From a phage: DNA of 40,116 nt. Both the position numbers and the translations under genes were made by a program. Location: the NCBI GenBank assembly GCA_011944185.1, contig GCA_011944185.1_3921.1; one strand, 5' to 3'. This document shows positions 3,515 to 5,497 of this stretch, piece by piece. How positions within the stretch are numbered: the first letter of the stretch is position 1; each line of letters opens with the position of its first letter. Under the pieces are notes generated by a model. It ran no database searches. It saw nothing but the letters and a program-made list of their open reading frames with translations, and was not told where the DNA came from.

Positions 3515-3757
3515 ATGCAAACATTAACAGTAGTTGAACATGAAAACTGTGAGAGTATTGAGTTTGTCAGGGTCATTGGTGTTGAACACCACATTTTCTT
3601 AAAAGTGGGATACTTATGCGACCCCGCTAGAGTAGAAAGATTTATACGTGATTGTTTTGGTGGTAGACATCTGAAGAGTGTTATTTTTGAGACAGTTTTA
3701 CCAGAAGGTTTAGAAACGAATAATAACATTTACCTCCTTACGAGGATTAGACAATGA
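3515..3757 (+). CDS. hypothetical small protein (80 aa)
   Basis: ORF with AAGGTGA 6 nt upstream of ATG; stop overlaps the start of the next ORF (ATGA). Confidence 0.45.
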   Translation: MQTLTVVEHENCESIEFVRVIGVEHHIFLKVGYLCDPARVERFIRDCFGGRHLKSVIFETVLPEGLETNNNIYLLTRIRQ

Positions 3758-4311
3758 GATACTTAAAGTATGCTTCATGGATTTTCTTAGCTTTGTTAGA
3801 GCCATTTGCAGCAATCTTAGCAGTTATCTTAGCACCTTTTGTAGTTCCATTCTACAGTGAGAAGAAAGGACACTTACCTTTCGGGTTCAGATGGATGGAG
3901 ACATATGACAACCCAATTGATGGTGATGAAGGTCACGTTAAAAGATGGGCTAATATTAGATGGATTGGTAAACTAGGTGTCTACATGCAAAGAGTCGGAT
4001 GGCTCTGGAGAAACAAAGCTTATAACTTCTCTTACCATGTATTAGGAAGAGATGTAAGAGATGTTACTAAGTGGAAAGGTAATATCAACGTAAGTTCTAA
4101 CCCTGAAGATAATCAGACTGGTTATCTCCTAATGTGGAACAGTAATGCTTGGGGATTATTCGCTTTTATCCCATCAATTAAAGTCTTCGGTAAACAGTTT
4201 TACTGGAGAATTTATGTTGGATGGAAACTTAAAAGTGTTGTCCCAGAAGAAAGAGCATTCTCAAGGGAAAGAGTTATGTTGGCATTCTTTATTCATCCAC
4301 TGAGAAAGTAA
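3754..4311 (+). CDS. hypothetical membrane protein (185 aa)
   Basis: hydrophobic N-terminus (WIFLALLEPFAAILAVILAPFVVPF), Trp-rich; start translationally coupled to the upstream ORF. Confidence 0.5.
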   Translation: MRYLKYASWIFLALLEPFAAILAVILAPFVVPFYSEKKGHLPFGFRWMETYDNPIDGDEGHVKRWANIRWIGKLGVYMQRVGWLWRNKAYNFSYHVLGRDVRDVTKWKGNINVSSNPEDNQTGYLLMWNSNAWGLFAFIPSIKVFGKQFYWRIYVGWKLKSVVPEERAFSRERVMLAFFIHPLRK

Positions 4312-4319
4312 AGATTTAA

Positions 4320-4395
4320 AGGGGATTAGTTTACAAGGTTAAAACCTCGGTCTTTGAAATCGAAGAAGTTGGTTCAATTCCAACATCCCCCGCCA
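4320..4395 (+). tRNA. tRNA-Gln (anticodon TTG)
   Basis: acceptor aggggat/atccccc with 1:72 A-C mismatch; anticodon stem tcggt/atcga with loop ctttgaa; T-arm GTTGG-TTCAATT-CCAAC; CCA encoded. Confidence 0.75.
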
Positions 4396-4397
4396 AT

Positions 4398-4476
4398 GCT
4401 CCATTACTCCAATTGGCAGAGAGGCCAGACTTAAAATCTGTGTTATGTATCGGTTCGAATCCGATATGGAGTACCA
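4398..4476 (+). tRNA. tRNA with Leu anticodon TAA but short (7-nt) variable loop
   Basis: acceptor gctccat/atggagt; anticodon loop cttaaaa; T-arm ATCGG-TTCGAAT-CCGAT; discriminator A; 76 nt. Confidence 0.65.
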
Positions 4477-4481
4477 AATTT

Positions 4482-4557
4482 AGCGGTATAGCATAACTGG
4501 CAATGCAGCAGTCTCTGAAGCTGTCCTATTAAGGTTCAAATCCTTATGCCGCTGCCA
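4482..4557 (+). tRNA. tRNA-Gln (anticodon CTG)
   Basis: acceptor agcggta/tgccgct; D-stem gcat/atgc; anticodon loop ctctgaa; T-loop TTCAAAT; CCA encoded. Confidence 0.75.
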
Positions 4558-4588
4558 CTTCTAAGGATTCTTACGAGAGTCCTTAAAT

Positions 4589-4660
4589 GTGGCCTTATCA
4601 TAAATGGTAATGACCCATGCTGTGAACATGGTCTATACGGGTTCAAATCCCGTAGGTCAC
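4589..4660 (+). tRNA. tRNA-His (anticodon GTG)
   Basis: acceptor gtggcct/aggtcac; perfect anticodon stem ccatg/catgg with loop ctgtgaa; T-arm ACGGG-TTCAAAT-CCCGT; discriminator C; no encoded G-1 or CCA. Confidence 0.8.
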
Positions 4661-4669
4661 CCCAATTTA

Positions 4670-4746
4670 TAGTCCAAGTAGCTTATATGGTTAAAGCGCG
4701 TGTCTGAAAAACATGAGAAGAGGGTTCAAATCCCACTGGACTACCA
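4670..4746 (+). tRNA. tRNA-Phe (anticodon GAA)
   Basis: acceptor tagtcca/tggacta; anticodon stem cgtgt/acatg with loop ctgaaaa; T-loop TTCAAAT; 3' end followed directly by cca. Confidence 0.75.
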
Positions 4747-4762
4747 ATTTCAAAGGTGCTTA

Positions 4763-5497
4763 ATGAAAGAGATGACAGAACAAGGTAAGGAGATTTTCAA
4801 TCTCTTAAAAACCGGTAAAGGGTTTTCTAACCCCCTTATTACTGGTGCAGCAGTTCTCGGTGGAACCGTAGCTGCCTCTACATCACTTGTAAGCTCTATT
4901 AGCTCTGTATCAGACCCTACAGTAAAGGATAAGCTTGTTGCTGCTGGACTTACAACAGTTCTGCTTAACAGCTTTACCACGAGTCTGACAAGCACTACAT
5001 CAACTACCAAGACACTAACAGATTACGGTCAAAAGTCCATTGATGAGTTTTCATCACGTATGCAGGTAGCAAAAGGTTACTCTAATGTTATGGGTGCAGC
5101 AGGTGAACAAGTTGGCTGTACACCATTTAGTGGTATTATGGGTGTTGCTACAGAGTATGGTCAAAAAACTATTGATACGATTAACAGTGCACTAGATAGT
5201 GTTAATGGTGTGTTAAGTGACTTACAAGATGCTATTGACAAAGGTCTTGATACTATTTCTGATTTAGCTGAGCAAGCTGTTAGTAAGATTAATGAAGGTA
5301 TTTCAAAAATTACAGCTTATGCAGATGAAGTTGCGCAGATGATTGAAGAAGAAGCTGCTCTTATTGCAGAGTACCTTAAAACGAATATCAATGGGTTCTT
5401 AGCAGGTATCTTACCAGACTGGTTTGATGATGCTTGTAAAACTGGTGTAATTGACACTATTGCAACACCAGAAATGAAGAACGCATTACAGAAATAA
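4763..5497 (+). CDS. hypothetical protein with Ser/Thr-rich low-complexity and coiled-coil-like regions (244 aa)
   Basis: ATG at 4763 is the first in-frame start clear of tRNA-Phe; the track ORF from 4700 overlaps the tRNA; sits between tRNA genes. Confidence 0.5.
   Translation: MKEMTEQGKEIFNLLKTGKGFSNPLITGAAVLGGTVAASTSLVSSISSVSDPTVKDKLVAAGLTTVLLNSFTTSLTSTTSTTKTLTDYGQKSIDEFSSRMQVAKGYSNVMGAAGEQVGCTPFSGIMGVATEYGQKTIDTINSALDSVNGVLSDLQDAIDKGLDTISDLAEQAVSKINEGISKITAYADEVAQMIEEEAALIAEYLKTNINGFLAGILPDWFDDACKTGVIDTIATPEMKNALQK

Follow-up and report, generated by a model that had tools for sequence, protein, structure and literature searches.

Why should a phage keep protein genes in the middle of its tRNA genes, and do such genes serve a common purpose? 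The question is raised by positions 3,515 to 5,497 of a phage contig of 40,116 nucleotides (NCBI GenBank assembly GCA_011944185.1, contig GCA_011944185.1_3921.1; the whole stretch, one strand read 5' to 3', is called the window here), where three open reading frames (ORFs) on the plus strand are interspersed with tRNA genes. Positions 3400-5600 share 96-98% DNA identity with the Felix O1-like myophages E. coli O157 typing phage 1, wV8 and Ro111lw, and by its sequence the source phage is a Felixounavirus. Felix O1-type phages are widely used in typing, diagnostics and biocontrol of Salmonella and E. coli; their lysis system is incompletely defined and no holin has been annotated. A first-pass annotation, made from the letters alone, had placed the three ORFs inside the tRNA array, where the ORF list, ARAGORN and Rfam also put them, and had suggested that they encode early host-takeover or anti-defence factors. 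The ORFs and the features within them are as follows.

3515-3757, plus strand: ORF1, an 80-amino-acid (aa) soluble protein, phrog_14202 (PHROG match)
3742-3757, plus strand: ORF1/ORF2 coupling junction, with a GAGGA Shine-Dalgarno sequence at 3742-3746 (inside ORF1) and an ATGA stop/start overlap at 3754-3757 (read from the sequence)
3754-4311, plus strand: ORF2, a 185-aa membrane protein of DUF7338 / phrog_2143, equivalent to Felix O1 ORF48 and SUSP1 agp134 (Pfam, PHROG)
3769-3861, plus strand: predicted transmembrane (TM) helix of ORF2, residues about 6-36 (Kyte-Doolittle, AlphaFold2)
4763-5497, plus strand: ORF3, a 244-aa acidic protein of DUF7217 / phrog_2114, equivalent to Felix O1 ORF49/Gp49, SUSP1 agp133 and LIMEstone1 ORF129 (Pfam, PHROG)
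4853-5077, plus strand: Gly/Ala/Ser/Thr-rich, weakly hydrophobic tract of ORF3, residues about 31-105 (sliding-window composition)

The interval holds three unrelated protein genes that are real and not chance frames. ORF2 matches Pfam PF24027 (DUF7338) with 206.3 bits against a gathering cut-off of 27 (E=4e-61; residues 1-184 on profile positions 1-176 of 180) and ORF3 matches PF23854 (DUF7217) with 294.9 bits against a cut-off of 29 (E=6.4e-88; residues 8-243 on positions 2-238 of 238), each also matching its PHROG, phrog_2143 and phrog_2114, respectively. ORF1 matches phrog_14202 over its full length (E=1.2e-37; residues 1-80 on positions 1-76 of 76), and five homologues, the most distant at 37-42% protein identity, keep its plus-strand frame open and have stops in every reverse frame. 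The earlier statement that none of the three has an obvious function stands in so far as no function is known, and needs correcting in that ORF2 and ORF3 belong to catalogued Pfam DUF families; with phrog_14202, all three families are already catalogued. Fold searches against BFVD yielded nothing but uncharacterised phage proteins. The evolutionary status of the three genes differs and their roles probably differ as well. We propose that ORF3 is a core virion gene, ORF2 an envelope or lysis accessory gene and ORF1 a diverging accessory gene, all carried on a transcript shared with the tRNAs, an explanation to which we give nearly, but not quite, an even chance. As a lead, DUF7338 is the most useful of the three, being a candidate new component of a lysis or envelope module.

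DUF7338, the lysis cassette and the cell envelope

The hydrophobic N-terminus and the abundance of tryptophan first noticed in ORF2 were both borne out, with one strongly hydrophobic segment at residues about 6-36 (Kyte-Doolittle peak 2.38) and a Trp content of 5.9%. The AlphaFold2 model (predicted local distance difference test, pLDDT, 95.1) has a long N-terminal helix (residues 2-33) followed by a compact alpha/beta domain; it matched no fold in the PDB, and a PDB sequence search gave one insignificant match. Across the family the N-terminal flank of the TM segment carries a charge of +2 in most members and the C-terminal flank -2 to +3, charges that favour an N-in, C-out orientation. Thus ORF2 is predicted to cross the inner membrane once, with its basic, Trp-rich alpha/beta domain probably on the periplasmic side. 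An exhaustive profile search found 874 DUF7338 clusters at 50% identity (396 of these at E≤1e-10), and almost every one is a stand-alone protein of 160-200 aa; ten distant clusters that were looked up came from contigs of at most 271 kb, and the names of their members were uninformative. Invariant residues are P28, T50, D52, G57, W83, W85, R86, N87, Y90, G109, G123 and W157. With other members of PF24027 / PHROG 2143, including Felix O1 ORF48 (NP_944875), RB43 ORF080w, JS98 gp136, S16 gp73 and SUSP1 agp134, ORF2 shares its length, the N-terminal TM segment and the T-x-D-N...G and WLWRN motifs, and no feature sets the window copy apart. Felix O1 ORF48, its counterpart, is listed as 'CHP; membrane protein' (PMC3185647). 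In a metagenomic protein of 172 aa (P0037) the N-terminal half of DUF7338 is fused to a C-terminal domain of Gp53-like tail-fibre type. The fusion may reflect recombination or a chimera made in assembly, and fits the tail-fibre adjacency seen in lineage L020, described below.

The genomic surroundings of DUF7338 reach well beyond tRNA genes. The gene is embedded in tRNA arrays in Felixounavirus, SUSP1, Otagovirus M5.1, Av-05 and the large-phage contig L071 (183 kb), has a single tRNA-Arg just 5' of it in the metagenomic lineage L094, and stands just downstream of the tRNA cluster in the T4-like phages JS98, S16, KP27, Miller and Proteus ABTNLPp2. A strict functional link to tRNAs was nevertheless rejected, since the gene lacks a nearby tRNA in a Mosigvirus (after rI), in phiAS5 (where a lysozyme is the next gene), in Moabite (before a tailspike gene), in jumbo phages such as FBKp24 and in small-phage contigs. 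Also rejected was a tRNA-Arg plus DUF7338 cassette common to Felix O1-like and T4-like phages: the window gene has the anticodon ACG, those aligned with it in JS98 and S16 have TCT, and the tRNA bodies differ; the tRNA-Arg of a related Proteus phage is likewise annotated TCT.

Lysis genes are recurrent neighbours. The order is tail-fibre assembly gene, DUF7338, a 96-aa protein with one TM segment and a GH108 endolysin in L020, with Rz further on; holin, lysozyme, i-spanin, o-spanin and DUF7338 in L028 and L111, the latter with LysA three genes downstream as well; a holin-like ORF with three TM segments, DUF7338 and Amidase_2 in L107; DUF7338, an 89-aa coiled-coil protein with one TM segment and lysozyme in L090; and tail fibre, a 149-aa ORF, DUF7338, a coiled-coil ORF and an M15 peptidase in L110. 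A lysozyme lies three genes 3' of DUF7338 in L105, and in S16 and Proteus phages a 501-nucleotide (nt) gene annotated 'tail lysozyme' is found near it. By a hand count set against a rough chance estimate, with no formal test, an endolysin of one of at least four classes occurs within about 3-4 genes of DUF7338 in 8-9 of about 30 dereplicated lineages, where about 1-2 would be expected by chance. One neighbour protein with a GH19 match that turned up in the same survey could not be assigned to any locus. In several tail-fibre/lysis operons DUF7338 has its start codon right at the stop of the preceding gene or overlapping it, which suggests that it is co-expressed with late genes and is not an independently promoted moron.

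DUF7338 would then be a stand-alone, horizontally mobile accessory gene, which large virulent myophages keep where the genome is plastic, for example in tRNA arrays or in the T4-type interval between the tRNAs and e, and which smaller phages keep at the boundary between tail fibre and lysis cassette, within late operons. Because of this boundary position in late operons, we suggest that DUF7338 works in concert with the lysis machinery and that its target is the cell envelope. Its most likely role would be that of a lysis-timing or lysis-accessory factor, with a block to superinfection at the envelope as a close alternative; the former seems somewhat more likely, and we do not think that the protein acts on host metabolism or on cytoplasmic immunity. 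Put more specifically, and as a tentative possibility, DUF7338 would be a widespread and hitherto unrecognised component of lysis or envelope control, anchored in the inner membrane, periplasmic and of a fold absent from the PDB, which works alongside holin, endolysin and spanins; possible roles include those of a new type of lysis-timing regulator or antiholin, of an envelope-remodelling factor and of an exclusion factor. Large virulent phages would have moved such a gene into their tRNA arrays and other plastic regions. A resemblance to the T4 holin T and antiholin RI lies in the one N-terminal hydrophobic segment and the probably periplasmic globular domain, and DUF7338 adjoins rI in a Mosigvirus and endolysins elsewhere.

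Could DUF7338 be the missing holin itself, a class III holin like T4 T with one TM segment and a large periplasmic domain? A single N-terminal TM segment followed by a domain of about 150 aa does resemble the architecture of T4 T, and ORF2, with one strong TM segment in a small phage protein, has the least that a holin requires; it matches no known holin family and no solved holin fold. Some GenBank records name DUF7338 proteins 'holin', and endolysins adjoin the gene in several phages. The Felix O1 paper found no holin-lysin cassette (PMC3185647), and the RefSeq record annotates no holin. In a CRISPRi-ART screen the SUSP1 orthologue agp134 scored 1.24 (p=0.087, 3 guides) and was classed Semi-Fit, as was TerL with 1.68 (PMC11879866); in the equivalent T4 screen, run at a multiplicity of infection (MOI) of 10, the holin gene t was Semi-Fit too, and imm was Fit (PMC11879866). 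However, L028 and L111 carry DUF7338 in addition to a canonical Phage_holin_2, endolysin and spanins, and L020 and L107 carry it in addition to other small TM proteins of holin-like type; its coexistence with canonical holins makes it unlikely to be 'the holin'. The T4-like carriers presumably have a t gene of their own. In Felixounavirus, moreover, DUF7338 is seemingly transcribed early, about 9 kb from an endolysin gene on the opposite strand, and another candidate is at hand in Felix O1 ORF79. Taken together, we regard a holin function as quite improbable.

The counterpart of ORF79 by position and size lies at 29435-29806 (plus strand) of the window and encodes a protein of 123 aa that combines a single TM segment at the N-terminus with a long coiled coil (phrog_4038). 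ORF79 has been put forward as a holin candidate (PMC3185647), and proteins of its type share their architecture with the small proteins found between DUF7338 and the endolysin in L020 and L090.

A stronger rival, though still an unlikely one in our judgement, is that DUF7338 serves superinfection exclusion or receptor masking, blocking DNA entry from the inner membrane or altering the receptor of the phage's own fibres (envelope or lipopolysaccharide), in the manner of T4 Imm and Sp, T5 Llp or Cor. DUF7338 often directly follows tail-fibre or tail-fibre-assembly genes or precedes a tailspike gene (L020, L078, L088, L110 and Moabite), and llp and cor themselves sit beside tail-fibre genes. The gene occupies early-type regions in virulent phages, its domain is probably periplasmic, and the Semi-Fit class of agp134 is compatible with an exclusion role, T4 imm having been Fit in the same type of screen. 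Like T5 llp, the cor gene of T1/phi80-type phages, lambda bor and T4 imm and sp, ORF2 is a single-gene envelope accessory at module junctions or in plastic regions, a comparison that draws on the positions of those genes in their own genomes. Unlike them, to none of which homology was detected, DUF7338 abuts an upstream late gene in several operons and has no promoter of its own; in temperate-type contigs it is the stop of a late lysis gene that its start abuts. No similarity to known exclusion proteins was found either, as Pfam, PHROG and NCBIfam gave only the DUF and the PDB gave no fold match, and DUF7338 is associated with endolysins no less strongly than with tail fibres.

The proposal that DUF7338 belongs to lysis or envelope control has to contend with several observations. 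The gene adjoins tail-fibre genes about as often as endolysins, which confounds the lysis association, and a further confounder is that the tRNA cluster and gene e of T4-like phages are near neighbours on the T4 map anyway. In Felixounavirus DUF7338 lies about 9 kb from the endolysin gene (Felix O1 ORF35), on the opposite strand, and its apparently early transcription with the tRNAs, unlike that of classical late lysis genes, is the main weakness. The Semi-Fit class of agp134 rests on 3 guides with p=0.087, and these start a few nt past the end of tRNA-Arg, so that a polar effect on tRNA processing is possible. Literature searches by family name found no experiment giving a member of DUF7338, DUF7217 or phrog_14202 a function. 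As a large family with a confident model and no solved fold, linked to varied endolysins and with a weak knockdown phenotype, DUF7338 is nevertheless a cheap target in the search for a new lysis or envelope function, and both its lysis-cassette/tail-fibre context and its unmatched predicted fold are undescribed as far as the searched literature goes.

DUF7217 and the structural gene block

ORF3 is a different case. As first described, it is rich in Ser and Thr (20.5% overall and 50%, 15/30, in residues 61-90), and the AlphaFold2 model is almost wholly made of long helices packed as a helical bundle (pLDDT 67.7), with residues 31-80 helical at pLDDT 84-91; there is one marginal hydrophobic window at residues 25-43, and PDB sequence searches gave weak coiled-coil-type matches only. 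The start, MKEMTEQ, is kept in homologues. DUF7217 is found in 581 phage records and, like DUF7338, is widely conserved, so that here the first-pass annotation, which would have given up its reading had related phages lacked the genes, is not contradicted. Members occur in Felixounavirus, Suspvirus, Mooglevirus, Kolesnikvirus (44% identity) and Ackermannviridae (27-29%, full length), and a second homologue search with the DUF7217 alignment added one divergent homologue. The full-length matches include Felix O1 ORF49/Gp49 (NP_944879), which is 94% identical to ORF3 and holds the same position 5' of a small ORF and TerL, LIMEstone1 ORF129 ('unknown structural protein') and phiSboM-AG3 gp147, all of PF23854 / PHROG 2114.

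In the window, two tRNA genes and a small ORF separate ORF3 from the packaging genes.

5500-5672, plus strand: tRNA-Ser(GCU) and tRNA-Cys, between ORF3 and the packaging genes (ARAGORN)
5895-6095, plus strand: 66-aa ORF (phrog_4397), directly 5' of TerL (ORF list, PHROG)
6102-7718: TerL, downstream of the 66-aa ORF
7726-9201: portal, downstream of the 66-aa ORF

The order in the Kolesnikvirus SunLIRen is last tRNA, DUF7217, a 60-aa ORF, TerL and portal, with no tRNA between DUF7217 and TerL, which suggests that DUF7217 heads a conserved packaging/morphogenesis block into which tRNA-Ser and tRNA-Cys were inserted. In Ackermannviridae, unlike the window, DUF7217 lies between the capsid region and gp3, away from tRNAs. 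Judged by this distribution, ORF3 is a core Ounavirinae gene, present in Ackermannviridae as well, and not island cargo; the tRNA genes would have accumulated around it. A probable core virion gene in this place corrects how the boundaries and contents of the tRNA island are read.

ORF3 is probably a minor virion-associated protein that is dispensable for plaque formation in the laboratory. Felix O1 Gp49 (29271-30005, 244 aa, pI 4.3) is listed as structural from mass spectrometry of a virion gel band (PMC3185647). In LIMEstone1, 2 peptides of ORF129 (25.0 kDa) covering 18% of the protein were detected in virions. Upstream of the gene a late promoter has been annotated, and according to the authors every one of their unknown structural proteins has a counterpart in the ViI virion. 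The SUSP1 orthologue agp133 was Not Fit in CRISPRi-ART (PMC11879866), a screen which by its authors' account captured 10/19 predicted structural proteins (PMC11879866). The product would be an acidic, elongated helical bundle of low abundance in the virion, with a minor structural, assembly or ejected role.

Some observations sit uneasily with a virion protein. The Gp49 gel band ran at 51 kDa, as against 25 kDa for the protein, and Gp49 is absent from the stringent whole-phage shotgun list (PMC3185647); the VpaE1 GenBank record labels its DUF7217 homologue hypothetical, not structural; and the AlphaFold2 confidence for ORF3 is only moderate, its fold matches to long helical bundles being uninformative. 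The mass mismatch and the missing shotgun entry would suit a protein that is no true virion component, be it an assembly or scaffold-type helper or an abundant cytoplasmic contaminant. So would the mere 2 peptides in LIMEstone1, where rIIB, ligase and gp44 were detected too, the acidic and helical character of ORF3 with its weak match to a T4 scaffold family (E=0.09), and the Not Fit class of agp133. However, three studies in two phage families report detection (Felix O1, LIMEstone1 and the ViI counterpart), the coverage of 18% in LIMEstone1 compares with less than 5% for the proteins that its authors flagged as unexpected, and the position at the head of the structural gene block is conserved. 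We therefore consider a non-virion protein unlikely and keep to the reading of a minor virion-associated one.

Section 2.7 of the Felix O1 paper attributes the 51-kDa band to 'gp49' and discusses it as a possible sheath protein (PMC3185647), whereas RefSeq now annotates ORF63 as the tail sheath; with ORF49 at 244 aa in the paper's table (about 25 kDa, judged by the LIMEstone1 homologue of 25.0 kDa), a numbering slip or an SDS-resistant dimer is pointed to. We also considered ORF3 as a tail tape measure, given weak PHROG matches to such proteins (best E=3.3e-5) and a similar Gly/Ala/Ser/Thr-rich helical composition, and rejected it: ORF3 has only 244 aa, the matches look driven by composition, and the genuine tape measure of Felix O1 is ORF67 (742 aa). 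The acidic 66-aa ORF at 5895-6095 is conserved directly 5' of TerL in the Ounavirinae examined (60 aa in Kolesnikvirus). Felix O1 has no reported small terminase gene (PMC3185647), which makes this ORF a positional candidate for one; its SUSP1 orthologue agp132 was Not Fit (PMC11879866).

ORF1 and its coupling to ORF2

The translational coupling proposed for ORF1 and ORF2 holds up, with the ATGA overlap and the GAGGA Shine-Dalgarno sequence in place; the ATGA-type junction is identical in DR094 and EC6, and a 4-nt overlap is kept in Av-05. Coupling does not, however, mean that one gene requires the other, as either can be found alone: Felix O1, VpaE1 and SUSP1 keep ORF2 and lack ORF1, and Mooglevirus has an ORF1 homologue in the same slot and no ORF2. 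An obligate pair was thus rejected, although the pair does recur in Av-05, an unrelated myophage of 121 kb, coupled and again within a tRNA array. Homologues of ORF1 were found in 69 phage records, with alleles in groups of ≥95% and ~72% identity and a Mooglevirus type at ~40%; the protein has no predicted TM segment and no Pfam, NCBIfam or PDB sequence match. Between the window and DR094, ORF1 shows 78.6% nt identity with changes at all codon positions, and the adjacent ORF2 94.4% with mostly third-position changes. ORF1 is thus a real, small, soluble, fast-diverging and separable accessory gene. In wV8 (EU877232) a minus-strand ORF of 91 aa (gene 52), overlapping tRNA-Arg, is annotated in place of ORF1 at what corresponds to window 3454-3729; since the reverse frames are broken in relatives, gene 52 is a misannotation.

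Transcription of the array and the host-takeover reading

ARAGORN finds 25 tRNA genes across 98-5672, every one on the plus strand; between 3200 and 6200, Rfam reproduces ten of these and finds no other RNA family. The features that flank the ORFs and the putative transcription signals are the following.

42-71, plus strand: sigma-70-like promoter TTGACA N18 TAAAGT, with TG, at the head of the tRNA array (consensus scan, 10/12; a pattern match only)
1507-1535, plus strand: sigma-70-like promoter TTGACA N17 TATAGT inside the array, the same sequence as Felix O1 'P45' (consensus scan, 11/12)
3422-3497, plus strand: tRNA-Arg(ACG), 5' of ORF1 (ARAGORN; Rfam tRNA, 59.5 bits)
3504-3509, plus strand: Shine-Dalgarno sequence AAGGTG of ORF1 (read from the sequence)
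4320-4746, plus strand: five tRNAs (Gln-UUG, Leu-UAA, Gln-CUG, His, Phe) separating ORF2 and ORF3 (ARAGORN, Rfam)
4753-4758, plus strand: Shine-Dalgarno sequence AAGGTG of ORF3 (read from the sequence)
5835-5852, plus strand: terminator-like hairpin, GACGGT-CTCTGT-ACCGTC and then T6, in the gap that separates tRNA-Cys from the packaging genes (consensus scan)

The spacing between tRNA and protein genes is tight: 17 nt from the 3' end of tRNA-Arg at 3497 to ORF1, 8 nt from ORF2 to tRNA-Gln, 16 nt from tRNA-Phe to ORF3 and 2 nt from ORF3 to tRNA-Ser. Directly 5' of ORF1 or ORF3 the consensus scan found no plus-strand promoter-like site of comparable strength. Felix O1 P45, at 25600-25628, has the same hexamers and spacer as window 1507-1535 (PMC3185647), onto which it maps when the tRNA-Ile(GAT) genes are equated (window 1416-1491; Felix O1 25509-25584). 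The hairpin at 5835-5852 is present as an exact copy at the same offset in 9 other Felixounavirus loci and one partial locus, and is likely to be the end of the tRNA/ORF transcription unit. The three ORFs would thus probably be co-transcribed with the tRNAs from sigma-70-type promoters, and tRNA end-processing would free ORF mRNAs with leaders of 16-17 nt and trailers of 2-8 nt, which makes the locus a simple test case for tRNA processing setting mRNA ends in phage tRNA arrays.

Expression during infection, without which the first-pass suggestion would have fallen, is on record, as reverse-transcription PCR (RT-PCR) in Felix O1 detected transcripts of ORF48 and ORF49, maximal at 5 min (PMC3185647). 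The 5-minute class includes ORFs 45, 46, 48 and 49 and also the major capsid gene (PMC3185647), and with a capsid gene in the same class the RT-PCR is weak evidence of early expression. A literature search for published Felixounavirus RNA-seq yielded nothing relevant. Early transcription of the ORFs alongside the tRNAs is thus plausible, and this part of the earlier suggestion stands.

Its other part, that all three ORFs are early host-takeover or anti-defence factors carried as tRNA-island cargo, is decidedly improbable. The setting does invite it: sigma-70-like promoters lie upstream, the terminator-like hairpin splits the block from the morphogenesis operon, Felix O1 ORFs 45, 46, 48 and 49 share the 5-minute class, T4-like genomes carry DUF7338 as an accessory in their plastic regions, and ORF1 is patchy and diverges far faster than its neighbour, as arms-race genes do. 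For ORF3, however, such a role is unsupported because it is a core gene reported in virions, and for ORF2 because the gene is built into late tail-fibre/lysis operons in other phages, those of temperate type and small ones; the same RT-PCR table, moreover, calls the major capsid gene 'early'. No annotated anti-defence family was matched by any of the three in Pfam, PHROG, NCBIfam or PADLOC: the PADLOC and NCBIfam scans gave only sub-threshold matches of coiled-coil type (e.g. ZorA and phasin, E 0.002-0.1), and in PHROG the top match of each ORF was a function-unassigned family. ORF1 is still a candidate for such a factor.

Two further observations concern the array itself. The tRNA at 3263-3337 (plus strand) has the anticodon TAT (Ile-UAU), whereas a near-identical gene in Felix O1, VpaE1 and DR094 has TAC (Val); the counterpart in Mooglevirus KMM4 also has TAT, and one C-to-T change switches the anticodon with the tRNA body kept. 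An ORF resembling HNH homing endonucleases (phrog_2255, E=4e-41) lies within the array at 1785-2183 (plus strand), and the Felix O1 array carries three HNH genes at other positions, so that the endonuclease content differs among relatives.

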